Shown: positions 1,023-13,166 of the stretch, piece after piece
How the letters are laid out: each line of letters starts with the position of its first letter
Position numbering within the stretch: position 1 is the first letter of the stretch
NCBI GenBank assembly: GCA_963692865.2
Contig: OY843592.1
Span: 416,001-480,000, forward strand
Length of the DNA stretch: 64,000 nucleotides
Direction: 5' to 3'
Source of the DNA: a bacterium
GTDB lineage: Bacteria; UBA8248
The notes under the pieces: generated by a model
The model's input: the letters and a program-made list of their open reading frames with translations, nothing else
The model's database searches: none
What the model was told of the DNA's origin: nothing
Made by a program: the position numbers and the translations under genes

Positions 1023-1421
1023 GGGGTTGTTGAAAAACCCCGAGAGGGAGGGTTTGCCGTCATTCCGGCGCATGCCGGAATCCAGGGAATTTGTTTTTGC
1101 CTTGTCGGTTTTGGCAGTCGTTCGGCGGTGTTGCCTTCCTCGTCAGCTCTGGATTCCGGCATCCGCCGGAATGACGATCAAAAGCATATCCGCCGTAGGG
1201 ACTACGCGAGACGCGATGGTTCTGTAGGGGAGGACCTGTGTGTCCTCCCCCGCACGTCGTTTTGGTCGTGAGCCTGACGTAGGGGCGGTTCGCGAACCGA
1301 CCCTACGGTGGATGTGGGTATTGCTCGTCATTCCCTCATCTCTCAGCTTCAGCGCCGAATCACGAAATCAGGGTTTTTTACCGGTCCTCCTCGGTCAAGA
1401 CTGATTGCCAACGGGAAAATT

Positions 1422-1504
1422 ATTCACGCCTATTAGGTAAAATATCGTGAATAAAGAGCATATTCTGCGCATCATTCACGATAAATTGATATTTTAACGT
1501 GAAT
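1422..1504. promoter_or_regulatory. Two palindromic boxes ATTCACG-N17-CGTGAAT upstream of / overlapping the Fic start
   Basis: Boxes at 1422-1452 and 1474-1504 have identical arms and identical 17-bp AT-rich spacing. Confidence 0.7.
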
Positions 1505-2411
1505 GAAGTATGTTCATGGCATGGCTACTCCGGGACCGACAAGAGATCGCATCGGGGCTCTCAAGCGCGAATACGACGCCTTGCGCCGGGGCAGGGAATC
1601 GCTTCTGGCGATGATCGACGAGGTGGAAGCGCCCGAGAGCGTCTACAACTCGAACGCGATAGAAAACTCCACCCTCACCCTCGATGAGACCGAAAGAATC
1701 CTGCTGGAGCAATCCCTCTCGCGCGAGGTGTCCGTGCGGGAGGTCTTCGAGGCCAGGAACCTGGCGCGGGTCACCGAATACAAGCGCGCGCGCGCGGAAG
1801 AGGGCGAACTGGACGAGGAGTTGATACTGCTCTTGCACCGGATGCTCATCGGCGGCATCGACGACGGAATCGCGGGCCGCTTTCGGGGGCGGGGGGAGTA
1901 CGTGCGCGTGGGCGCGCACATCGCGCCGGCGCCCGAGCACGTGGAGCGCATGATGGAGAACGTCCTCCTCACATATTCGAGCGATCTGGATTCCTACTTC
2001 CTGGACAAGATCGCGCGCTTTCATCTCGACTTCGAGACGATTCACCCCTTCTGCGACGGCAACGGCCGCATCGGGCGGGTGATCATCAATTTCCAGCTTC
2101 TGCGGCTCGGCCTGCCGCGCCTCATCGTCCGCAACTCGGACAAGGAGCGCTACTACCGGGCGTTTGATGATTACAGAGACCGCCGGACGGCCCGGACGAT
2201 GGAGAGCATCCTCTCGCTCGCGCTGCTGGAGTCGCTCCACAAGCGGGTGACCTACCTGCGGGGCGAACCGGTCGCGCGGCTCTCCGACTACATCAGGAAG
2301 GGAGGCCTCTCGGCCCCCGCCGCCACCAACGCCGCCCGCCGCCAGACCATCCCCGCCTTCCGGGAGAGGGGCGTGTGGAAGATCGGGGAGGGGGAGTCGG
2401 TCAAGGATTGA
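1503..2411 (+). CDS. Fic family protein (AMPylase-type) with possible C-terminal DNA-binding module
   Basis: Canonical HPFCDGNGRIGR motif; N-terminal YNSNAIEN. Confidence 0.92.
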   Translation: MKYVHGMATPGPTRDRIGALKREYDALRRGRESLLAMIDEVEAPESVYNSNAIENSTLTLDETERILLEQSLSREVSVREVFEARNLARVTEYKRARAEEGELDEELILLLHRMLIGGIDDGIAGRFRGRGEYVRVGAHIAPAPEHVERMMENVLLTYSSDLDSYFLDKIARFHLDFETIHPFCDGNGRIGRVIINFQLLRLGLPRLIVRNSDKERYYRAFDDYRDRRTARTMESILSLALLESLHKRVTYLRGEPVARLSDYIRKGGLSAPAATNAARRQTIPAFRERGVWKIGEGESVKD

Positions 2412-2443
2412 CCCCGGCGCCGGATGCGCCGCCGACACACGCA

Positions 2444-2640
2444 TGCGCTTCGAACACGCGGAAGTCGAACCCCTCGGGGTGGCGGTTCAGCGCCCAGGCC
2501 GCCCCCAGCCCCGAGACCCCCGCGCCGATGATGGCGACTCTTCTCGGCATCTCCGCTCACTCGTTGGCCAAGGATGAAAAACGCCCCCAAGGATAAACGC
2601 GATTGCGTGATGAGGGAAGGGGGTCAAACACGATTGATGA
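2444..2640 (-). pseudogene. Direct repeat copy 2: truncated 5' fragment (~35 codons from ATG 2550) of the oxidoreductase plus its upstream region
   Basis: Encodes MPRRVAIIGAGVSGLGAAWALNRHPEGFDFRVFEA, then diverges just after the Fic stop. Confidence 0.85.
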
Positions 2641-2768
2641 ACGAGCGTTTGACGCGAGTGAGGAGGGAGCGATTGTATCAGGATGATTGCGGGGGCCGGA
2701 TGTTGACCTCCGCGTCAGGTCCGCCTCGTACCGGAATGATTATGATGCCGAAGTGTCCGTGAAGAGAA

Positions 2769-3059
2769 TCAAGCGTATTCAGGAGCTGTATTGCTGTACG
2801 ATTCTTCCGTCCATCCCGAATACGTCGTGTTCAGATTCTCGTTGGTTCGAATGATGCGCCCGTGGTGTTCCATCATGGATTCGCAAATGCCGCCTATCGC
2901 TTCAATGATATTCGCAATGGCGCTTTCCCTGGTGTCGCCCTCTGAGATGCACCCTTCCAGGTCAAGACACTCGACGACATACCCACCGTCCGTTTCATCC
3001 GGCTCCAGCGAAACCTGAAATGGTCCATGATCCGACGTGTTGATGATGTATCGCTCCAT
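2769..3059 (-). CDS. hicB: HicB-family antitoxin-like protein (no adjacent hicA seen)
   Basis: GGYVVECLDLEGCISEGDTRESAIANIIEAI matches the HicB pattern. Confidence 0.8.
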   Translation of the reverse strand: MERYIINTSDHGPFQVSLEPDETDGGYVVECLDLEGCISEGDTRESAIANIIEAIGGICESMMEHHGRIIRTNENLNTTYSGWTEESYSNTAPEYA

Positions 3060-3080
3060 GATTCGATGCTCCCGCTGTTT

Positions 3081-3182
3081 TTATCCTGCCCCATTCACTT
3101 CGTCATCCACTTTGGGCTGAGTGATGGGACCGAACTTGCTTTCATATTGCTCGATATTTTCACCCAGCGCCTCCGCCTGCAT
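3081..3182 (-). pseudogene. C-terminal fragment of a DUF3467-like protein
   Basis: MQAEALGENIEQYESKFGPITQP resembles the DUF3467 C-terminal AL.ENI..YE.KFG.I motif; only 33 codons remain. Confidence 0.45.
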
Positions 3183-3330
3183 GGATTTTTACAGGAATAA
3201 TAGACGATCTTGCTCACTTACGGCAATTATGGCCAGGAGGCGGCAAGAACGCCCGTCGGGTTGGTTGCCATAGAAGAGGGTAGGGCGCTGTGGGAAAAGC
3301 GGTGAAGGTTGCTTGAATGAGGGTCACGAT

Positions 3331-3453
3331 AAAAAATAAACCCCCGGAGGGGCCGAAGCGTCGCGAGGGTTGAGTCGTTTCCCCGTTCGGGGAATTGCCT
3401 GCGAAGTTTTCTTCTTGTTATGAAAAGCAACGTAGGCATCGATCAGCTATAAT
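3331..3453 (-). ncRNA. tracrRNA: tracrRNA, divergent from cas9
   Basis: Minus strand ATTATAGCTGATCGATGCCTACGTTGCTTTTCATAAC is complementary (with G-U pairs) to the repeat. It is followed by nexus GAAG-AAAA-CTTC, hairpin TTCCCCG-AA-CGGGGAA and terminator GGCCCC-TCCG-GGGGTT-TATTTTTT. The 5' end is approximate. Confidence 0.9.
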
Positions 3454-3504
3454 CTGATATCCTGATACTTTATTTCTCATACATTGTCAATCGGGAGATT
3501 CATT

Positions 3505-6500
3505 ATGCCGCATCTCACGCTCGGGCTCGACCTCGGCCCGAACTCCATCGGCTGGGCGCTCGTCGAAGAGGACGAGTCCGGCAGCCCGCAAGGTCTCGAA
3601 GCCGCCGGCGTCCGCGTTTTTCAGGAAATGGTCGACAGGCAGAAGAAGACCCCGAAGAACCACAAGCGGCGCGACGCGCGCCAGGCCCGCCGCCAGCGCG
3701 CCAGAAGAAAAATGCGGCGCGACACCCTTACACGCGAACTCATCCGCTCCGGCCTTTTGCCGGAGAGCGCCGAGGATCGCCGGAAGTTATTCGGGTTCGA
3801 CCAGAAGAAAGAGGAGCAGAACGACCCCTACGAAATCAGAAAGCGCGGGCTGGACGATGAACTGACGCCGCACGAACTGGGCCGGGCTGTTTTCCACCTG
3901 AACCAGAGGCGGGGGTTTTTGAGCAACCGCAAGGTGCGCGATTCGGGAGACAAGAAAAAAGAAGACGGCGTGGTCAAAAAGGAGATTGGAGAACTCAGGA
4001 AGGAAATCGAGGAATCCGGCTCCCGGACGCTGGGCGAGTTTCTGGCGGATACGCCCAAAAAGAGAAACCGCCGCACGGAGCGGGCGATGTACGAGGAGGA
4101 GTTCGATGCTCTCTGGAAGAAGCAGGCGGCGTTCAAACCCGAACTGCTCACGGACGCGCTTCGCGCGCGAATTCGCAAAATCCTCTTCTTCCAGCGTCCC
4201 CTGAAGCTCCAGAAGTTTCTGGTCGGCAAATGCACTTTCGAGCCGCACAAGAAAAGGTGCCCCTGGTGCCGCCCCGAGGCGCAGTGGTTCAGGGCGCTCC
4301 AAGACGTGAACCATCTCGAAGTCAGAGTCCCCGAGACGGGCGGGTATCGCCCCCTCGACCAATCGGAAAGGGAAGTCATCAAAGAACAACTCCGGGAGAA
4401 GAAGACGCTCGGGTGGAACGGCGTCCGCAAGGCGCTGGGGTTTCACTCGGGCGAGACGTTCAATATCGAAGAGGGCGGGAAGAAGAACCTGATGGGCGCG
4501 CGCACGCTCATAGACGTCCGGAAAATCCTCACGAAAAAGACGTGGGAGGCCATGTCCGGCGAGCGGGAGGAGTTTCTGGACGAGTTGTTCAGTACCCACA
4601 AGGAAGAAACCCTGTTGAAGCGGCTGGAGAAGCGCTGGCGACTCTCCGATGAGAAGGCGGACGCTCTCCTGAATACGGAGTTTCAGCCCGGCTACGCGAG
4701 CCTCTCCCTCCGGGCGATTCGCAGAATCACGCCGCATCTGGAGAGAGGATTGAACTACCACGATGCCTGCCGGGCGGCAGGCTATCGGCATGAATACGAG
4801 AAGGAAATCGACGCGAAAGAAGCGCTCCCACGCGCTCCCGAACTCAGAAACCCCATCGTCCAGAAGGCGATCTACGAGGTGCGCAAGCTAGTGAATGCCG
4901 TCGTCCGCGAGTACGGGATGCCGAGGCGCATCCGTGTGGAGCTCGCGCGGGACCTGAAGATCGGTAAGAAGCAGAAAGACGCTCTGAACCGCCGGAACAG
5001 GCAAAACCGCGACCTGAACGACGAGGCGCGCAAGGTGATGGAGGAGGTGGGAGTTTCTGACAACGGGGCGAACAGGCTCAGATACCGGCTGTGGAAGCAG
5101 CAGAAGGGCCAGTGCCCCTACACGGGCGCGAGCATCGGCGCGCGCGATATTTTCAGCCCCGAATACGAGGTGGATCACGTTCTCCCCTACAGCCGGACGC
5201 TCGATGATTCCTACATGAACAAGGTGCTCTCCAAGGCTTCCGCCAACCGGGAGAAGGGGGACAGTACGCCTCATGAATGGAGGAGCGGCGATTCGGGAGA
5301 ATTCACCAAGATGCGCCAACGCGTATCTTCTATGAAGGACATGCCTTATTCCAAGAGAAGGCGCTTCGAGCAGAAAGAACTTGAACTCGATAAGTTTATC
5401 GAGCGCCAACTCAACGACACGCGCTACATCAGCCGCGAGGTGAAGGACTACCTCAAGGACCTGGGCGCGGACATGCAGATAACGACGGGACAAGCCACCG
5501 CCGCCCTGCGCCGTTTCTGGGATCTCAACAAGATTCTCGCCGTCGATTCGGACCTCGAAAAAAACCGCGCCGACCACCGCCACCACGCCATCGACGCGCT
5601 GGTCGTCGCTCTCACGAGCCGGAGCCTTTTCAAGAGCATTGCGGATATTGCCGCCGAATACCGGGAACACGCGGTTCTGGTTCTGAACCGGAGGCATTTT
5701 TCGCTCAGAGAACCCTGGCCCGGATTCATGGCCGACGTTCGCGGGGAGGTAGAGAAAATCGTCGTCTCCCATCAGCCGCTCAGGAAGATCAGCGGAGCCT
5801 TTCACGAGGAGACCGCCTACGGGCGTATCTCGCGCGACGGAGAGGACGTGTTCGTCCGAAGAGTCCCCCTCGAATCGCTCAGGCCGCCGCAGGTCGAGAA
5901 AATCGTCGACCGCCGCATCCGCGAACTCGTTCGGGAGCGCATGAAGGCTCACGACGGAAAAGCCAAGGACGCCTTCGCAAAGCCTCTCTATCTGGAGCAT
6001 TCAAACAAGGGAAAGGGCAGAACGCGAATCGAGACGGTGCGCGTCGCCGAGAACCTGAACCCGGACGGCCTATTCGGCGTCAAAAGAAAAGGAGAGGCGA
6101 AACCCTTCAAGTATTACGCATTGGGCAACAACCACCACGTTGAAATCATCGAGAATATAGAAACGGGCAGGCGTGCGGGCCGCGTCGTCACGGCCATGGA
6201 AGCGGCCCGGCGAGCGAGAAGGGCGCGGACCTCAATCGTCCGCCGCGACTGCGAGGAGGGCCAGCGGTTCGTGATGTCGCTCTCGATAAACGACGTGGTG
6301 AAGCTCGATGAGCCCGTGAACGGCTGCGATATGTACCGCGTTCAGAAAATTGGCAATATCGTAGCCACAGGGGCAATACAAATCACATTGCGAACACATG
6401 CAAGTGCTTCGATAGACGACAATGCAACACGACTACTTGTATCACCCAACACGCTCCGGGGACGCAAGATGTCCGTCGATCCCCTGGGCAAACTGGAGGC

Positions 6501-6513
6501 CGCCCATGATTAA
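3505..6513 (+). CDS. cas9: Type II-C Cas9, ~1002 aa
   Basis: RuvC-I LGLDLGPNSIGWA, Arg-rich bridge helix, RuvC-II IRVELARD, HNH EVDHVLPYSRTLDDSYMNKV..N..K, RuvC-III HHAIDA; RBS GGGAG at 3493-3497. Confidence 0.97.
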   Translation: MPHLTLGLDLGPNSIGWALVEEDESGSPQGLEAAGVRVFQEMVDRQKKTPKNHKRRDARQARRQRARRKMRRDTLTRELIRSGLLPESAEDRRKLFGFDQKKEEQNDPYEIRKRGLDDELTPHELGRAVFHLNQRRGFLSNRKVRDSGDKKKEDGVVKKEIGELRKEIEESGSRTLGEFLADTPKKRNRRTERAMYEEEFDALWKKQAAFKPELLTDALRARIRKILFFQRPLKLQKFLVGKCTFEPHKKRCPWCRPEAQWFRALQDVNHLEVRVPETGGYRPLDQSEREVIKEQLREKKTLGWNGVRKALGFHSGETFNIEEGGKKNLMGARTLIDVRKILTKKTWEAMSGEREEFLDELFSTHKEETLLKRLEKRWRLSDEKADALLNTEFQPGYASLSLRAIRRITPHLERGLNYHDACRAAGYRHEYEKEIDAKEALPRAPELRNPIVQKAIYEVRKLVNAVVREYGMPRRIRVELARDLKIGKKQKDALNRRNRQNRDLNDEARKVMEEVGVSDNGANRLRYRLWKQQKGQCPYTGASIGARDIFSPEYEVDHVLPYSRTLDDSYMNKVLSKASANREKGDSTPHEWRSGDSGEFTKMRQRVSSMKDMPYSKRRRFEQKELELDKFIERQLNDTRYISREVKDYLKDLGADMQITTGQATAALRRFWDLNKILAVDSDLEKNRADHRHHAIDALVVALTSRSLFKSIADIAAEYREHAVLVLNRRHFSLREPWPGFMADVRGEVEKIVVSHQPLRKISGAFHEETAYGRISRDGEDVFVRRVPLESLRPPQVEKIVDRRIRELVRERMKAHDGKAKDAFAKPLYLEHSNKGKGRTRIETVRVAENLNPDGLFGVKRKGEAKPFKYYALGNNHHVEIIENIETGRRAGRVVTAMEAARRARRARTSIVRRDCEEGQRFVMSLSINDVVKLDEPVNGCDMYRVQKIGNIVATGAIQITLRTHASASIDDNATRLLVSPNTLRGRKMSVDPLGKLEAAHD

Positions 6514-7399
6514 ACGAATCGTCGAAATCGGAAGTCCCGCCCGTCTCTCGCTCAGCCGCAAGCAACTGAAAGTGGAGCGGGAGGAATTCGCCGCAGAGTC
6601 GCTCCCCGTGGAGGACCTGGGCGTCCTGATTCTCGACCACCCGGCCATCCGCCCCTCGCAGGGGCTGTTGTCCGAGTGCATGAAGAACAACGTCGCCGTC
6701 GTGATGTGCGACGAGAAGCACCTGCCCGCCTCCGTCCTCCTCCCGCTGGACGGACACACGCTGCACAGCAGGATCGTGAAGGAGCAGGCCGCCGCCACCC
6801 CCGGCAGGCTGAGCCGCCTGTGGCGGGCCATCGTGCGCGAGAAGATTCTCGCCCAGGCCGACGCGCTCGACGCCTTCGATGAATATGGAGAACCCCTGCG
6901 CGCCGTCGCCGGGCGCGCGGGGCGGGAGAACCCGGCCCAGGCCGAAGCCCGCGCCGCGAGAATGTACTGGCCGAGGATGTTCGGCGCGGATTTCAGGCGC
7001 AACCGCGCGCTTCCGGGCGTGAACCGGCTCCTGAACTACGGCTACTCGCTCATCCGCGCGGCCACGGCGCGCGCGGTCGTCGCCTCGGGTCTGCACCCCG
7101 CCTTCGGCCTGCACCACCACAACCAGTACGACGGCTTCTGCCTGGCGGACGACCTCATGGAGCCGCTCCGCCCGCTGGTGGACCGCCGGGTGCGCCGGAT
7201 GCGCGATGAGCCGGAGGAGTGGGGCGAGGAACTCGAACTGGAGAAGGAGGAGAAGCGCGAGCTTCTGGGCGTTCTGGCCGAGGACGTGCGGTTCGGCGGC
7301 AAGGCCTATCCCCTTCTCACCGCCCTTCAATACTACGCCGCGGGCGTCCGCCGCGTCGTCTGCGGGGAGGAGAAGGAAACGGAAATCCCCCGGCCATGA
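6506..7399 (+). CDS. cas1: Type II Cas1
   Basis: EARAARMYW, NRLLNYGYSLIRA, GLHHHNQYDGFCLADDLMEPLRP; start overlaps the cas9 stop. Confidence 0.97.
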   Translation: MIKRIVEIGSPARLSLSRKQLKVEREEFAAESLPVEDLGVLILDHPAIRPSQGLLSECMKNNVAVVMCDEKHLPASVLLPLDGHTLHSRIVKEQAAATPGRLSRLWRAIVREKILAQADALDAFDEYGEPLRAVAGRAGRENPAQAEARAARMYWPRMFGADFRRNRALPGVNRLLNYGYSLIRAATARAVVASGLHPAFGLHHHNQYDGFCLADDLMEPLRPLVDRRVRRMRDEPEEWGEELELEKEEKRELLGVLAEDVRFGGKAYPLLTALQYYAAGVRRVVCGEEKETEIPRP

Positions 7400-7725
7400 G
7401 CTTCGGGGGGTGGCGCAGCATGTGGCTCATGGTGATGTTCGATTTGCCGACCGACACCAAGGCGGCGCGCAAGGCCTATCAGGAGTTTCGGGGTTTCCTG
7501 CTCGAAGACGGCTTCACGATGCTTCAGTATTCGGTCTACGCCCGGCATTGTCCGAGTTCCGAGAACGCGGAGGTGCACGAGCGGCGCATCAACGCCGCCC
7601 TGCCCCCCGACGGGGAGGTGCGGCTCCTGCTCTTCACCGACAAGCAGTTCTCGCGGATGAAGATTTTCTATGGGAAGATACGCAAGGCGACGGAAAAGGC
7701 TCCCGAGCAGATCACGTTGTTCTGA
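7396..7725 (+). CDS. cas2: Cas2
   Basis: WLMVMFDLPT..FRGFLLEDGFTMLQYSVYAR; ATGA overlap with cas1; no csn2 or cas4, hence II-C. Confidence 0.96.
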   Translation: MSFGGWRSMWLMVMFDLPTDTKAARKAYQEFRGFLLEDGFTMLQYSVYARHCPSSENAEVHERRINAALPPDGEVRLLLFTDKQFSRMKIFYGKIRKATEKAPEQITLF

Positions 7726-7776
7726 CCTGTCTTCGGGAGCCTTGACCCAATCGGTTCAACCACTTGGAGAGAACCG

Positions 7777-10248
7777 ATTGTAGCTGATCGATGCCTGCGC
7801 GCAATCCACAACCCTTATAGCGCAGAGCCATGCGACGTTTTATTGTAGCTGATCGATGCCTGCGCGCAATCCACAACCTTACTTGCACGGTGTAGACACG
7901 ACCTGCTATTGTAGCTGATCGATGCCTGCGCGCAATCCACAACCGAAGCTTGCCAAGAGTGGCGATGAACGTTATTGTAGCTGATCGATGCCTGCGCGCA
8001 ATCCACAACTCCCCCTTTATTCTTGCCCCTTGTTTTTGATTGTAGCTGATCGATGCCTGCGCGCAATCCACAACTCGTTCCGTGTCCACCGCCAGGATCG
8101 GGTTATTGTAGCTGATCGATGCCTGCGCGCAATCCACAACCAAAGTTACGCTTTCCGAAAACGCGACGCATTGTAGCTGATCGATGCCTGCGCGCAATCC
8201 ACAACAATGACATTCGCCGGGTCGCTTTGGCGGCTATTGTAGCTGATCGATGCCTGCGCGCAATCCACAACTGGTGACGTCATACAACATTTATGACGGG
8301 AATTGTAGCTGATCGATGCCTGCGCGCAATCCACAACTGTGCAGGCCCGTACGAAGAATGGCCTGCATTGTAGCTGATCGATGCCTGCGCGCAATCCACA
8401 ACCCCATGACGAGGCCTTTGATTAGGCTTCCTATTGTAGCTGATCGATGCCTGCGCGCAATCCACAACTCCAGGCGAATTTCATACCCTCAATCACGCAT
8501 TGTAGCTGATCGATGCCTGCGCGCAATCCACAACTGGCCCGCCGTGAAGCCGATCCGGCGGCGGATTGTAGCTGATCGATGCCTGCGCGCAATCCACAAC
8601 CGAGGCGATGGAGGGGATGTCGCCACGATTATTGTAGCTGATCGATGCCTGCGCGCAATCCACAACTTTGACGTTGAGTTTCCGACTGAAACAATGAATT
8701 GTAGCTGATCGATGCCTGCGCGCAATCCACAACTTTGACGTTGAGTTTCCGACTGAAACAATGAATTGTAGCTGATCGATGCCTGCGCGCAATCCACAAC
8801 CCGGAAACATTCGGCCACCTTCCGCACGTATTGTAGCTGATCGATGCCTGCGCGCAATCCACAACCACGTCGTCAACGCCCGCGATGAGGGTTGCATTGT
8901 AGCTGATCGATGCCTGCGCGCAATCCACAACTTGAGCGCCCTCCTGCAACCCATGCCAACGATTGTAGCTGATCGATGCCTGCGCGCAATCCACAACTGT
9001 GTCGCTTTCGTTGTCTGCGGTAGCTCCATTGTAGCTGATCGATGCCTGCGCGCAATCCACAACTGTTCGCCACGGACAGCTTGCGCACGGCTTATTGTAG
9101 CTGATCGATGCCTGCGCGCAATCCACAACTAATTCTTCTACGCCCTAAGCACTCCGCCATTGTAGCTGATCGATGCCTGCGCGCAATCCACAACAAGAAC
9201 AGATCCGTATCCCGACACTTCGCGATTGTAGCTGATCGATGCCTGCGCGCAATCCACAACCACCACCATGATGTGCGCCGCATACAGCAATTGTAGCTGA
9301 TCGATGCCTGCGCGCAATCCACAACTAGATGCGGCCGACGACGTCGATCTCCATCATTGTAGCTGATCGATGCCTGCGCGCAATCCACAACCGCTCCGGC
9401 TCGGCTCCTCCTTCGACTATCATTGTAGCTGATCGATGCCTGCGCGCAATCCACAACAAGGCGCCAAGTACTATCCTGAGCTCTCTGATTGTAGCTGATC
9501 GATGCCTGCGCGCAATCCACAACTCTCAATCGGCTTTGGTGAAAACGCTCCGCATTGTAGCTGATCGATGCCTGCGCGCAATCCACAACTGATGAGGATA
9601 TAGTCATCACTGGCGCAAGATTGTAGCTGATCGATGCCTGCGCGCAATCCACAACAGAACAACACGAATTACCTCAAGGGATGGCATTGTAGCTGATCGA
9701 TGCCTGCGCGCAATCCACAACTCTATTGCGATTGGTATCATTATTGTTGCATTGTAGCTGATCGATGCCTGCGCGCAATCCACAACTGTGTTGCTTTCGT
9801 TGTTTGTGGGAGCTCCATTGTAGCTGATCGATGCCTGCGCGCAATCCACAACGCGGGCGCGATGACGCCAGCCGGAAGGGAGATTGTAGCTGATCGATGC
9901 CTGCGCGCAATCCACAACAATGAGCGCATCAGCCGCTTCGTGTAGTGGATTGTAGCTGATCGATGCCTGCGCGCAATCCACAACTCCATACCCATCACCC
10001 AAGCACCTTGAACAATTGTAGCTGATCGATGCCTGCGCGCAATCCACAACTAGGTTATTGTTGCGGCCCTACCCATGATGATTGTAGCTGATCGATGCCT
10101 GCGCGCAATCCACAACACCTCACGTCGCCGAGCGATGAAGAGGTCAATTGTAGCTGATCGATGCCTGCGCGCAATCCACAACGGATGGGCCGATGGGTTG
10201 CTGGCTATCATGATTGTAGCTGATCGATGCCTGCGCGCAATCCACAAC
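7777..10248 (-). CRISPR. CRISPR array: 38 identical 36-bp repeats (GTTGTGGATTGCGCGCAGGCATCGATCAGCTACAAT on minus), 37 spacers of 29-31 bp
   Basis: Counted directly. Orientation inferred from tracrRNA complementarity and the II-C-type GTTGT...GCTACAAT ends. Confidence 0.98.
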
Positions 10249-10268
10249 GGCTTTCAGTATTTATATCG

Positions 10269-11009
10269 TCATGGGGTGGCGTCCTCCCACCCCCTGAAAC
10301 CCAACAAGCCATCGTCGCCGAAATCGAAGCCGAACAGGCCCTGGTCGAGAGGTGGCCGCAAACCACAGTTACTTTGACGACTGGCGCAGGCCCAATTAAA
10401 GTGTAGCAAGTCGAGAGGTGGCCGCAAACCACAGTCGCTTTCAGTATTTATATCGTCATGGGGAGAGGCGTTCTGGACTTTCTCCGGGTCCAGTTTCGCC
10501 AGAATCTCGAAGCTGTGCGCTCCCTTGTTGTAGCATTGTTTCTGGGTGTTGCGAGTGGCATCTTTCAGGCCCTTCTCGATATTACCTTTGGCGATTTGCT
10601 CAATCCGTAGATTTTGCGGGAGCGCATTCTCCCGGTAGCCCTGACCAAAGAATTCCTTTAGCGCATCCTTATCGGCCAGAAACCACGACTCCACGATTTG
10701 CACCATGAGGTGGCACTGGTTGTCCGCCGCGCCCTCGGGACGGGGCCATCCGTCGCGTTTGTTGAGGTGTCGCCATGATCCTGCTTCATTCACCGGTTCC
10801 TCGGCATCTACGAGAAGCATGGCGCTTCCTTGTTGATGGGCGACCACGAAATCATTGTATGCGTTGCCACGACCGCCGCAGGCTACGATTCTGGGCATCA
10901 TTCCAGCCAAACCCGCCTTCTCGATGAAAGTCCGAAAACCTTCGCGGCACGCCGTCCTCAGAATTTTGCCGTCGCCGCCGCCTTCCACACAGAGCTTGAT
11001 GCTCACCAC
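10269..11009 (-). CDS. DUF4276-like (TOPRIM-like) protein; C-terminal tail reads through CRISPR-derived DNA
   Basis: LCVEGGG, LLVDAE, VESWFLAD, Y.KG.HS motifs; overlaps the ATPase stop. Confidence 0.8.
   Translation of the reverse strand: MVSIKLCVEGGGDGKILRTACREGFRTFIEKAGLAGMMPRIVACGGRGNAYNDFVVAHQQGSAMLLVDAEEPVNEAGSWRHLNKRDGWPRPEGAADNQCHLMVQIVESWFLADKDALKEFFGQGYRENALPQNLRIEQIAKGNIEKGLKDATRNTQKQCYNKGAHSFEILAKLDPEKVQNASPHDDINTESDCGLRPPLDLLHFNWACASRQSNCGLRPPLDQGLFGFDFGDDGLLGFRGWEDATP
10281..10346 (+). pseudogene. Short fragment resembling a type I R-M HsdS / N6-methylase conserved segment
   Basis: Reads VLPPPETQQAIVAEIEAEQALV, like the (I)PLPPLE.Q..IV..IE conserved region. Confidence 0.6.
10344..10435 (-). 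CRISPR. Vestigial mini-array with a second repeat type (ACTGTGGTTTGCGGCCACCTCTCGACTTGCTACACT): one full repeat, one 30-bp spacer, one truncated repeat
   Basis: 26-bp identical cores at 10344-10369 and 10410-10435, 66-bp period; full 36-mer at 10400-10435. Confidence 0.8.
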
Positions 11010-12202
11010 CTGTTTCCTCCGATATCCCCGCGTGTCCAGAGTTCGCCGAGGCGGTATTTATCGAGCCAGGGTTCGAGTTCGTTTGCGTCGAGGCGGTGAA
11101 GCCGCGTGGCGCCTTCGGACTTCTCGCAGACGACGATGGCTTCCGGCGTGTCCGTGAGCGCATCCACGAGAACGTCGGAGTGCGTCGTTACGAAAATCTG
11201 GCTGCGCGATGACGCCTCGACGAGTAGTTTCGCCACTTCCGGGATGATGTCCGGATGCAGCCCGATCTCCGGCTCCTCGATGCAGACGACCGGCGGCGGG
11301 TCGGGGTGGCAGAGCACGGCGAGCAGGCACAGGTAGCGCAGGCTCCCGTCCGAGAGCCGCGTGGCGGGCACGGAATGTTGCAGGTCTTCTTCGTGGAGGA
11401 ATATCTGCACCTCGCCGGTCGCTATGTCAGTAGTGACATCCCCTATTGATTGATAGAAGGTTCTCAAATGTTCCAGTATCTGGCGTTTTAGGGGAGGGCG
11501 GTTCAACAGATCGTTCAGAACCAAAGCGAGGTTCGAGGCGTCCTCCAGAAGATTTTTCTTTGGCAGGTCGGTTCGCCCCGGACTGCGCGGCGGCTCGCCG
11601 TGCTCGAAACTCCATTCGCGATAGAAGCGCATACGCTCGAATTCATCGGCCAGATAGGTCAACTCGGGATAAGAATCGGGGTCTCGCCGCTGTGAGAGAA
11701 TCGACTGGTCGTACTTTACGTCTTCTCGCTTGAGATGTCGTTTGTGACCGGGTTCCTCCTCAGTGAAAACATTGAGCGCCGGATGGCCGTCTTGATAGCG
11801 GTAGTAGAAAAAAGGATCTTGTTTGTCTGGTGTCGGTTTCTCGTTCTCCACGGCCTCGTCTTTGAGTTCGAAACGCGATCCGGATTCCGTGAACGACAGT
11901 CGATATCTGAGGGGCTGCTGTCCCTTTGGGTATTCGAGGGTAGCGTCCACGGTCGCCTTGCCGGGTTCGTGCGTTCCCTTCCAGAGCCAATGGCGGACGC
12001 CTCCCCCAGTCCGAATCGGCTCTTGAAGCTCTTTGCCGGGTGCGGCGGCGAGAAGGGATAGCGCTTCGATCAGGTTCGACTTACCCGAAGCGTTCGGCCC
12101 GATGAGGACGTTGAGCGGCTCCAGGGGAAACTCTTCGGACGAAGGGCCGTAGGAGAGGACGTTCTCCAGGCGGATCGTCCGAATGAACCTCCTGCCCTCC
12201 AT
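11003..12202 (-). CDS. AAA_21/AbiEii-like ABC-type ATPase
   Basis: Walker A GPNASGKSN, signature LSDGS, Walker B/D-loop IEEPEIGLHP, H-loop TTHS. Confidence 0.9.
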   Translation of the reverse strand: MEGRRFIRTIRLENVLSYGPSSEEFPLEPLNVLIGPNASGKSNLIEALSLLAAAPGKELQEPIRTGGGVRHWLWKGTHEPGKATVDATLEYPKGQQPLRYRLSFTESGSRFELKDEAVENEKPTPDKQDPFFYYRYQDGHPALNVFTEEEPGHKRHLKREDVKYDQSILSQRRDPDSYPELTYLADEFERMRFYREWSFEHGEPPRSPGRTDLPKKNLLEDASNLALVLNDLLNRPPLKRQILEHLRTFYQSIGDVTTDIATGEVQIFLHEEDLQHSVPATRLSDGSLRYLCLLAVLCHPDPPPVVCIEEPEIGLHPDIIPEVAKLLVEASSRSQIFVTTHSDVLVDALTDTPEAIVVCEKSEGATRLHRLDANELEPWLDKYRLGELWTRGDIGGNRW

Positions 12203-12544
12203 GCTCTGCTCTCCCCGGGTTCGCCACAACTGAATCAGGATCATTTTCGGGAACAGGATAGCATACGCGGGCGTATAACCCACCAGCCGCGCGGCTCACA
12301 ATCGGAGGGTCGCCTCGCCCGGCGATTTTTCGCTTATCGGTTGGAATCGCCCCGCCTATTTCAGGATACGCCGCCGATATTTCGCGTTAAAGCCGGGTTT
12401 TTCCCCGTCCGCAAAGCAGGGCGGTTCGCGAACCGCCCTTGCGGGACGCCGGACGAGAGGGTTCCGGCCCGACGGGCGAAGCCGCGCGCGGGGGCAATCC
12501 CCGCCCCGCCCGATCAGGCCCTTCGGTACAAACGCTCCTTTCTC

Positions 12545-12719
12545 GGGGTTGTTGAAAAAGCCCTTGCGGGCCGGTCGGTATCTCACCGTAGGGGCCGCAT
12601 ATCATGCGGCCCTGCCTTTTCGCCTTCACAATACGGGTCGCATGATATGTCAGACATATATGTCTGACCTACGGGTAAAACGTGGTTGATGCGAGAGGGA
12701 TAGGTTTTTCAACAACCCC
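12545..12719. mobile_element. MITE-like element with GGGGTTGTTGAAAAA terminal inverted repeats, carrying REP-like palindromes
   Basis: 15-bp perfect TIRs; internal GTCAGACATATATGTCTGAC palindrome. Confidence 0.7.
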
Positions 12720-13166
12720 TTGTCAGGGGGGTGGAAGCGACGCCCCCGGCGAGGGGTTTTTCAACTACCCCTTATCGGCTGGAATTGGCCCGCCCGTTCC
12801 GGGATACGCCGCGGATGTTTCGCGTTAAAGTCGTGATTGACTCGCAAAAGCGGCGTGAATTTCAAGCCGCGCATTTCCCCGCAATTGCCGTGTCCAAGTT
12901 TTCGCGCGCGCGGGCGATACTCCCGCGCGGGGAATCGACCCCGGTTGACGGGCAGGGGATTGCCGATCAAGGAGCGGGGGGCGCCGTTCCCGTCGATGGA
13001 GGAGGAGAAAATGATGCGAGCGGTTCGGTCGTCGATGCGCTCCCGGGCGGGGCGCTCCCTCCCCGGCCGGGCGTGCGCCGACTCCGGGAGGAGGACGAAC
13101 GGCGGCCGCTCCCTGCCCGGCGGACCGCGAGCCCCCGCTCATCCGGCCCGGTTCGGCCCCCGCGCG

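Follow-up and report, generated by a model that had tools for sequence, protein, structure and literature searches.

Orphan CRISPR arrays are widespread, and adaptation and effector modules are exchanged between CRISPR-Cas loci. Furthermore, the small CRISPR/Cas-associated RNA (scaRNA) of Francisella and the CreA-type RNAs work with the resident effector. Here, we describe a stretch of 215 bp (positions 10249-10463) within a bacterial DNA of 64,000 nucleotides (nt; contig OY843592.1, positions 416,001 to 480,000), which is called the window throughout. In this stretch the array of a complete type II-C system and a neighboring mini-array with a second type of repeat are followed by the same 27 nt. 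It is likely that the stretch is the scar of CRISPR-Cas cassette turnover in a defence island, left by two successive II-C cassettes with the same trailer, and not a regulator. The II-C lineage with R1 repeats, which is the resident one, is referred to as t1 and the II-C lineage with R2 repeats as t2. Coordinates are window positions unless a genome code is given, and G000 denotes the genome of the window itself (4.15 Mb).

According to the study by Feussner et al. (2025; PMC12080349), II-C arrays gain spacers at the last repeat in the sense of transcription. Each repeat has its own promoter and the first repeat is the oldest, 'extra' one, so that the sequence upstream of it would be the guide of an extraneous CRISPR RNA (crRNA). 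Since the crRNAs of the window are read on the minus strand, this polarity places the 27-mer at the oldest, cas-distal end of both arrays, in the position of the extraneous guide.

Two Arrays and One Flanking Sequence

The plus strand of the window harbors a complete type II-C locus, consisting of the trans-activating crRNA (tracrRNA), cas9, cas1, cas2 and the R1 array. The array (7777-10248, crRNAs read on the minus strand) contains 38 copies of the 36-nt repeat R1 (ATTGTAGCTGATCGATGCCTGCGCGCAATCCACAAC), all of them exact, and 37 spacers of 29-31 nt. A single G at 10249 lies between the last R1 repeat and the first copy of the 27-mer (GCTTTCAGTATTTATATCGTCATGGGG, 10250-10276), with which the cas-distal, oldest-end flank of the R1 cassette starts. 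After 67 nt of other sequence the mini-array follows, likewise read on the minus strand. It is composed of a truncated R2 repeat (10344-10369), of which the 26 nt on the crRNA 5' side are left, a single spacer of 30 nt (10370-10399) and a full R2 repeat of 36 nt (10400-10435), which would have been the oldest, 'extra' one in the t2 array that stood here. A single C at 10436 separates the latter from the second copy of the 27-mer (10437-10463), which is fused to a truncated DUF4276 gene. The mini-array is thereby only 95 bp away from the live R1 array, and both then carry the same 27 nt. An earlier note on this DNA had described this layout, with the 27-mer one base past both arrays, and direct reading and counting reproduced each of its coordinates.

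The two copies of the 27-mer are identical at all 27 positions. With up to three mismatches allowed, two matches were obtained in the window in comparison to 0.00 expected from 100 shuffles, and in the whole 4.15-Mb genome exactly these two matches are present. The 26-mer of R2 occurs twice as an exact match in the window, where none is expected. Of the 36 positions, 23 (64%) carry the same base in R1 and R2, the period of R2 is 66 nt, and on the crRNA strand R2 ends in TGCTACACT, a TG-extended, -10-like sequence.

Within the R1 array, two neighboring spacers (8667-8697 and 8734-8764) are identical, and two further spacers (8998-9027 and 9787-9816) are near-identical variants of one protospacer, with 96% identity over a 102-nt unit.

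R2 Is the Repeat of a Second Type II-C Lineage

R2 is a genuine repeat of another II-C lineage, t2, which is found in the congeners G013 and G001 and at the loci L055-L068. In a set of 42 family genomes, arrays built on the R2 core are confined to two, namely G013, with two copies of an array of 22-23 repeats, and G001, with two repeats; otherwise it was seen only in the relics of G000. In both genomes the R2 array is located directly downstream of a t2 cas9, and the window R2 is identical to that of G013 at 34 of 36 positions. The t2 Cas9 proteins of G013 and G001 share 68% identity, and the identity of t2 Cas9 to the t1 Cas9 of the window amounts to 31%. Class-wide, in 51 genomes, a Cas9 at least 70% identical to the t2 query was present solely in G013 and G001.

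Outside the family, 14 further loci in public metagenome-assembled genomes encode Cas9 proteins 58-68% identical to t2. These genomes are labeled Alphaproteobacteria, Gammaproteobacteria, Paracoccaceae, Candidatus Poriferihabitaceae and Synechococcus. In the t2-family loci for which an array was found, the array starts ~1.35 kb past cas9, and in L061, the one locus checked, cas1 and cas2 were confirmed in between. The repeats of the t2 family include the AGTGTAGC... form seen in the window, and the start AGTGTAGCAA... is common to the window R2 and to L059, L062-L064, L067 and L068. Ordinary arrays of the t2 family commonly have this AGTG/TACACT variant, and the -10-like TACACT end therefore belongs to the normal variation of the family and signals neither decay nor a special function.

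The pairing with the tracrRNAs separates both repeats clearly. The t2 tracrRNA of G013, which sits divergently upstream of its t2 cas9, forms a duplex of -48.3 kcal/mol with its own repeat and of -45.6 kcal/mol with the full R2 of the window, as opposed to -25.4 kcal/mol with R1. The local t1 tracrRNA, on the contrary, pairs with R1 at -46.4 kcal/mol and with the full R2 at -16.6 kcal/mol. Shuffled R2 sequences reach -11.9±3.0 kcal/mol with the local tracrRNA and 17 of 300 pair as well as R2 itself, so that the poor pairing noticed earlier is indeed at chance level.

The earlier note had further asked for a second cas9, a second tracrRNA and arrays with this repeat. In G000, which is 97% complete by the figure of the tool used, a tblastn search with the t2 Cas9 of both G013 and G001 retrieved only the t1 cas9 (31%), and neither the t2 tracrRNA nor the t2 leader had a match anywhere in this genome, which contains R2 as relics only. 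Therefore, the mini-array is an orphan of a foreign lineage. Having one full and one 26-nt truncated repeat, it also lies below the two full repeats of a functional array.

No target of the mini-array spacer was found in the own genome, in viral contigs, where the earlier note had suggested searching, or in plasmids. Against phages only 23-nt matches (E 0.6) to Streptococcus phages were obtained, which were taken as chance. The best self matches are 13 nt long and occur at four places (E 0.88 each), which is chance-like as well.

Junctions and Related Strains

On both sides the mini-array abuts a gene fragment. To the left, 66 nt (10283-10348, plus strand) correspond at the DNA level to the 3' part of hsdMS, a fused methylase/specificity gene of a type I restriction-modification (R-M) system, with 94% identity to G008, 91% to G012 and 82% to G016. 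In G012 and G016 the matching gene encodes an 830-aa fusion of N6_Mtase and Methylase_S beside a ResIII/HSDR_N gene, which together represent a type I R-M system. No other copy of the fragment is present in the own genome. It meets the truncated R2 repeat at a shared GTCGA.

To the right, the homology of the DUF4276 gene with five relatives begins only at 10457-10459. The genes of the relatives are 14 codons longer and end, in the case of G016, in ...SPHAKRFVEVLFRLVQS*. In the window the open reading frame on the minus strand extends from 11009 as far as a stop at 10269-10271. Residues 1-184 represent the DUF4276 protein, and the lost 14 codons are replaced by 62 unrelated read-through codons across the mini-array. 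The last 7 nt of the second 27-mer copy, CATGGGG, also fit the native DUF4276 gene (TCGCATGGGGAGA in G010), which argues that this join took place at a microhomology. Altogether, the junctions carry microhomologies of 5-11 nt, that is GTCGA, CATGGGG and a C-rich run.

Four public runs (X1-X4) from one study and three samples hold parts of the region 10180-10900; they were used as contigs, which show presence and not absence. In X2, a 928-nt contig with a depth of 49.5 is identical to the window over 10400-10900, and left of R2 it continues into 26 nt (TTTTTTCAGGCCCTTAGCGAGAGCCT) that resemble the cas-proximal t2 leaders of G013, G001 and L061. In X3, the DUF4276 contig (depth 21.3) is identical over 10406-10900 and ends inside R2. 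Here, the summed depth over R2 is 458 in comparison to 21.3 for the adjoining DUF4276 contig, which is a ~20-fold excess and would reflect an R2 array of multiple repeats. No depth over R1 was observed in X2 and X4. An 811-nt contig of X1 spans 10283-10646 with two differences and comprises the hsdMS fragment, the truncated R2, the spacer, the full R2, the second 27-mer copy and DUF4276; X1 also holds R1 repeats with spacers of the window (six of the six listed). In X4, one contig joins the end of the R-M gene to DUF4276 via 1685 other bases.

The junction of the second 27-mer copy with DUF4276 is therefore found in contigs of X1, X2 and X3. Related strains carry the t2 leader and probably a long R2 array, which ends in the order R2, C, 27-mer and DUF4276, and no R1 was seen in X2. 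Since the t2 leader is found in these strains at the very same junction, the mini-array of the window is a deletion relic. This means that a t2 module composed of tracrRNA, cas9, leader and R2 array was once located directly in front of DUF4276 in this species; 1.7 repeats and one spacer are left of it in the own-genome relic at the window. The first option of the earlier note, in which a second II-C system left a fossil at this very site, is supported by these data, with R2 being the t2 repeat of G013 and G001.

An assembly artefact has to be weighed at this point. Here, two strain variants, one with the R1 array and its trailer and one with hsdMS, R2 relic, 27-mer and DUF4276, would have been joined in the C-rich run around 10283-10297, and the two 27-mers would never have been 187 bp apart on one molecule. 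The missing contig cover over 10255-10279, the X1 contig that is unlike the window left of 10283 and the presence of several strain variants of the island in the runs would fit such a chimera. However, the overlap of trailer and R-M gene is ~15 nt, which is too short to mislead the usual assemblers, the window is part of a 3.94-Mb contig, both halves are real and have orthologues elsewhere, and contigs attest presence but not absence. We therefore regard an artefact as distinctly improbable.

Origin of the 27-mer

Judging from its alignment with an orthologous cassette, the trailer at the cas-distal end of the t1 cassette opens with the 27-mer. This only orthologue, on contig C2 of G013, a genome of another species, is an ordinary t1 cassette. 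It aligns with window 3331-7812 at 84%, and the homology continues across the array up to 10297. Its R1 repeat is identical to that of the window, and its Cas9 is the closest in the genus with 82% identity. The distal flank of this cassette matches the first 27-mer copy at 22 of 27 positions with one indel and then continues with GGCGTCC and a C run. The alignment score is 54 in comparison to 14.1±2.9 for shuffled sequences, and none of 1000 shuffles was as good. In the window the corresponding remainder of the flank, TGGCGTCC followed by the C-rich run, occupies 10277-10297. Beyond both ends of the cassettes the homology stops and the genomic surroundings differ, which indicates that a trailer of ~48 nt travels with the t1 cassette and that the first copy of the 27-mer is in its native place.

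The cas-proximal flank is kept in all seven R1-type arrays in which it is visible (window, the C2 cassette of G013, G002, G009, G007, G015 and G017). A distal flank similar to the 27-mer, however, was found in two of eight R1-type arrays, the window and the C2 cassette, and not in G002, G007, G009, G015, G017 and G029. This pattern agrees with the polarity given in PMC12080349. A role of the 27-mer as acquisition leader was considered and rejected, since it lies at the end opposite to spacer entry and is not conserved among related arrays.

A hairpin of the form GGGGTGG-N7-CCACCCC is located at 10273-10293, formed by the end of the first 27-mer copy and the flank (-17.2 kcal/mol, z-score -2.3). 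Its 7-bp GC stem takes in 4 nt of the first copy and precedes that copy on the minus strand; the second copy has no comparable hairpin (z-score -0.3). A consensus scan for promoters and terminators detected nothing at either 27-mer, and a search of 2400-12600 against Rfam with E values up to 0.1 gave no match.

Three functions had been proposed for the 27-mer beforehand: promoter, ancestral spacer and recombination site. The first finds no support in the scan. As an ancestral spacer the 27-mer should be followed by something similar to a repeat, and the 36 nt past each copy are unlike a repeat (~7 of 36 positions by eye); the orthologous flank in G013, which extends for more than 30 nt, also counts against a spacer, and we rejected this reading. 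The third is taken up with the proposed history.

A degenerate scan of genome contigs for the 27-mer yielded 24 matches in unrelated taxa, about the number expected by chance, none of them beside a CRISPR repeat, and an exact 22-mer of it had no match in metagenome contigs. A 60-nt flank query against the 42 family genomes returned the own genome only, and with a query so short even G013 falls below the threshold. No flank similar to the 27-mer was seen in G001 and in six t2 loci of other taxa, and no t2 locus outside this species has a convincing one.

The evidence assembled so far also bears on the second option of the earlier note, a regulatory unit analogous to scaRNA/CreA, in which the mini-array would give rise to a crRNA-like RNA used by the resident Cas9 and the 27-mer would be a promoter or another selected functional element. 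In its favor, the full R2 keeps the TG-extended -10-like end on the crRNA strand, the truncated R2 keeps the 26 nt that would pair with a tracrRNA, and the unit lies downstream of an operon without a stop and is probably transcribed. Nevertheless, the pairing of R2 with the local tracrRNA is matched by shuffled sequences and is far from that of R1, the -10-like variant is shared with ordinary t2-family arrays, and no self match of the spacer exceeds 13 nt. Furthermore, neither the promoter scan nor Rfam yielded anything, the mini-array differs between strains, and a 27-mer-like flank accompanies so few of the R1-type arrays. Such a regulator is therefore very improbable. The mini-array relic would instead be inert, since no cognate Cas9 or tracrRNA is present, and at most be read through from the HEC-01 operon, which itself lacks its stop and native 3' end.

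Two side observations concern the array ends. Runs of 10-15 C or G are found within ~40-150 nt of the cas-distal array end in the window (10287-10297), the C2 cassette of G013, G009, G007, L003 and L067; these could be recombination-prone boundaries, be related to sequencing, or be due to chance. In the C2 cassette, the R1 array of four repeats lies ~0.7 kb away from cas2 (G013:C2:2098100-2098900, locus L013 1790-2600). The insert in between carries the end of cas2 and the leader in duplicate, a single degenerate repeat and, by eye only, a tRNA-like stretch, and looks like an insertion at the leader.

Composite Loci of t1 and t2

In this genus t2 repeats have repeatedly been joined to remains of t1 arrays. 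One case is the composite II-C locus G013:C1:198960-205300 (loci L052 and L015), from which the t1 cas9 and the R1 array are gone. It begins with a 55-nt remnant of the t1 tracrRNA/cas9-promoter region (85% identity to window 3419-3473), followed by t1 cas1-cas2 with 91% DNA identity to window 6440-7756 and a Cas1 protein identity of 95.6%. Most of the t1 leader is kept: the BLAST alignment ends at window 7756, 20 nt short of the first repeat, and a weaker likeness extends by eye to ~7770. Immediately afterwards the t2 tracrRNA, t2 cas9, t2 leader and an R2 array of 22-23 repeats follow. The composite stretch recurs at the start of contig C2, there with a stop in cas9.

G001 has a t2 module, which comprises tracrRNA, cas9, leader and two repeats in 3.67 kb and is flanked on either side by direct repeats of 111 nt that are 98% identical (locus L016, 5031-5140 and 8813-8923). 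The right copy abuts the last R2, and the module is apparently inside a gene. No Cas1 (PF01867) was detected anywhere in this genome, which is 99% complete. The by-eye impression that the flank in G001 resembles DUF4276 was dismissed, as no Pfam DUF4276 is present near the t2 arrays of G001 or G013.

An orphan hybrid mini-array lies outside the window in the own genome (G000:C1:224839-224940, locus L003 1491-1592). It consists of an R2-like repeat (ATTGTAGCAAGTCAAGAGG...CCACAAC), a 30-nt spacer, an R1-like repeat with five changes and a flank that ends in a C run. The degenerate R1 repeat pairs with the local tracrRNA at -35.7 kcal/mol. The ending ...CCACAAC of the R2-like repeat would fit an R2/R1 chimera, and one point change from the G001 form gives the same ending. 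In its 3-kb locus no cas genes were seen by reading of the DNA only, without an open reading frame or family search.

The swaps in these loci appear to lie near the boundaries of the arrays. In the window the distance to the end of the repeat is one base, in the G013:C1 composite the leader-repeat junction is at most 20 nt away (by eye ~6 nt, with weaker similarity), and in the G000 orphan a repeat of the t2 type precedes a degenerate R1 and a trailer whose end is a C run. A broader proposal is that the t2 module (tracrRNA, cas9, leader and R2 array, without cas1-cas2) acts as a cassette that settles into resident t1 loci where their array lies, uses the t1 Cas1-Cas2 in trans and inherits the t1 trailer. 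We consider this quite unlikely. If true, it would suggest that recombination occurs within the conserved ends of the repeats (ATTGTAGC...CCACA) or at breaks made by the Cas1-Cas2 integrase, and the 27-mer would be a reusable docking boundary for Cas9 cassettes.

The direct repeats in G001 also suggest another origin of the two copies, a target duplication. Here, the insertion of a t2 module into the trailer of a resident R1 array would have duplicated its target, the 27-mer with the sequence following it, which left the module between direct repeats, and two later microhomology deletions, at GTCGA between hsdMS and R2 and at CATGGGG between trailer and DUF4276, would then have trimmed the product. 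The module of G001, whose right direct repeat abuts the last R2, offers a model for this, the window displays the same topology with a 27-mer, a t2 relic ending in R2 and again a 27-mer, and microhomology is present at both proposed deletion endpoints. However, flanking direct repeats are no general mark of t2 modules, since G001 was the only case among 12 testable t2-family loci. Moreover, the first copy is followed by its own trailer and the second by DUF4276, which would need a much longer duplicate cut twice, and an R1 array is predicted upstream, yet X2, with t2 leader, R2, 27-mer and DUF4276, shows no R1 repeats. A target duplication is therefore unlikely.

A Proposed History of the Locus

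For the cassette turnover preferred here, four steps can be outlined. First, a t2 module would have taken the place of the R1 array in a t1 locus and kept the t1 trailer, for which the G013:C1 composite is a precedent. Second, this t2 unit with its t1 trailer would have joined DUF4276 at CATGGGG at the cost of 14 codons, a state seen in X2 and X3. Third, a deletion from GTCGA in the R-M gene to GTCGA in an R2 repeat would have removed the t2 genes and most of the array, a state that X1 may show. Fourth, a complete t1 cassette with the same trailer would have replaced most of the R-M system, with its junction to the R-M gene in the C-rich run (10283-10297). On this account the identity of the two 27-mers would stem from common descent from a t1 trailer that circulates in the population.

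The replacement at a shared terminal sequence proposed in the earlier note is not shown by these data. The visible joins are at short microhomologies at the ends of the flanks and both copies of the 27-mer survive, unlike after a crossover inside the 27-mer. As a recombination site the 27-mer is only loosely described.

Several points weigh against this history. It takes several steps, and an identity of 27 out of 27 positions beside repeats that are only 64% alike needs a recent common source, which is postulated and was not observed. The assignment of the 27-mer to t1 is based on one orthologue, the C2 cassette of G013, and G013 is also the sole other genome with long R2 arrays, so that the transfer may have run in either direction. 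In the G013:C1 composite, the flank of the R2 array aligns to the 27-mer with a score of 20, which 25 of 1000 shuffles reach, and the unrelated control L075 scored 19; the precedent for a shared trailer therefore holds on the leader side only. Finally, no contig of the four runs covers 10255-10279, so that the join of R1, first 27-mer copy and hsdMS is known from this assembly only, and left of 10283 the X1 contig continues with 447 nt unlike the window.

The Resident System and the Defence Island

The t1 tracrRNA (3330-3453, minus strand) contains the anti-repeat at ~3405-3453, with a 16-nt exact match to R1 at 3434-3449, and a terminator hairpin near 3330-3350. In the region 3405-3473 the plus strand mirrors the anti-repeat as CATCGATCAGCTATAAT, a -10 box of the repeat type ~30 nt upstream of cas9, which may serve as cas9 promoter. 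The t1 cas9 (3484-6513, plus strand) encodes 1009 aa with the Pfam domains RuvC_III, HNH_4 and Cas9_a. By tblastn it is single-copy and the only cas9 of the genome, and its closest relative outside the genus shares 39% identity, which leaves no further trailers for comparison there. Downstream on the same strand, cas1 (6422-7399, Pfam Cas_Cas1) and cas2 (7398-7725) follow, both single-copy of their type in the genome, and then the 51-nt cas-proximal flank of the R1 array (7726-7776), which is the acquisition-side leader by the II-C polarity in PMC12080349. A second and much stronger Cas1 match (267.7 bits) is located at G000:C1:3242329-3243180 on the minus strand, in a 572-aa open frame, and indicates that another CRISPR-Cas adaptation gene of a different type is present in the genome.

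Beyond the mini-array lies a candidate defence pair, HEC-01 (10457-12283, minus strand). The DUF4276 gene or HEC-01B (10457-11009) matches Pfam DUF4276 over 1-183 of 192 positions and PADLOC HEC-01B over 2-188 of 202. Its partner HEC-01A (11003-12283) is an AAA_21 ATPase by Pfam and has a PADLOC E value of 2e-175. With the final 14 codons and the stop of the DUF4276 gene gone, the HEC-01 operon probably continues into the CRISPR relic and the oldest R1 end.

The island is variable between relatives. In G022, only 60 nt separate DUF4276 from a Fic gene with 85% identity to window 1407-2390, in comparison to 8066 bp (2391-10456) in the window. G012 and G016 carry hsdR and hsdMS at the island position, and G012 has a lone degenerate R1-type repeat ~930 bp from DUF4276. 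On the Fic side of the island, a direct repeat of 207 nt (91% identical) occurs at 800-1006 and 2415-2621. A 68-nt repeat (82% identical; 12333-12400 and 12771-12838) lies beyond HEC-01A and is also found near DUF4276 in G012 and G016. Both may be small mobile or recombination-prone elements.

Comparison With Known Systems

The stretch resembles orphan or degenerate array remnants in having few repeats, one of them truncated, no cognate cas genes, a location in a variable defence island and, probably, the full system in related strains. It differs from these in its position 95 bp from the live array of another II-C lineage, with both arrays continuing into the same 27 nt. The feature is real and well defined yet most likely of an ordinary kind, the decayed array of a displaced CRISPR-Cas system. 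Nevertheless, it records at the level of single bases the exchange of one Cas9 system for another in a defence island, with a trailer, part of an array and gene fragments as the pieces left behind and with joins at microhomologies of 5-11 nt.

The upstream region and 'extra repeat' of II-C arrays described by Feussner et al. (2025; PMC12080349) are matched by the position of the 27-mer directly upstream of the oldest repeat of both arrays. A GC hairpin precedes the first copy and not the second. In contrast to that description, the scan gave no Rho-independent terminator and the extra R1 repeat is unmutated. Two arrays that share an upstream region, as in the window, are not described in the introduction and the extra-repeat section of the paper.

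With scaRNA and CreA-type RNAs the mini-array has in common that a short unit with a divergent repeat lies beside a CRISPR-Cas locus. Unlike the repeats of these, the window R2 pairs with the resident tracrRNA no better than chance, and the self matches of the spacer are at chance level as well. The locus also gives a warning that a second repeat type beside an array need not be a regulator, and that unrelated arrays can share trailer sequence through history alone.

The exchange of modules between CRISPR-Cas loci is a further parallel. Here, the G013:C1 composite, in which t1 cas1-cas2 and part of the t1 leader are joined to a t2 tracrRNA, cas9 and array, and the t2 module of G001 in a genome without cas1 fit the general picture. 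The difference is that both partners are II-C systems and that the swap appears close to the array boundaries. Together with the scar in the window, these two loci suggest that a reduced module of Cas9 and array can ride on the adaptation genes of another system. The one aspect that deserves attention is whether t2 modules of this kind, which lack cas1, settle regularly where t1 loci carry their array.

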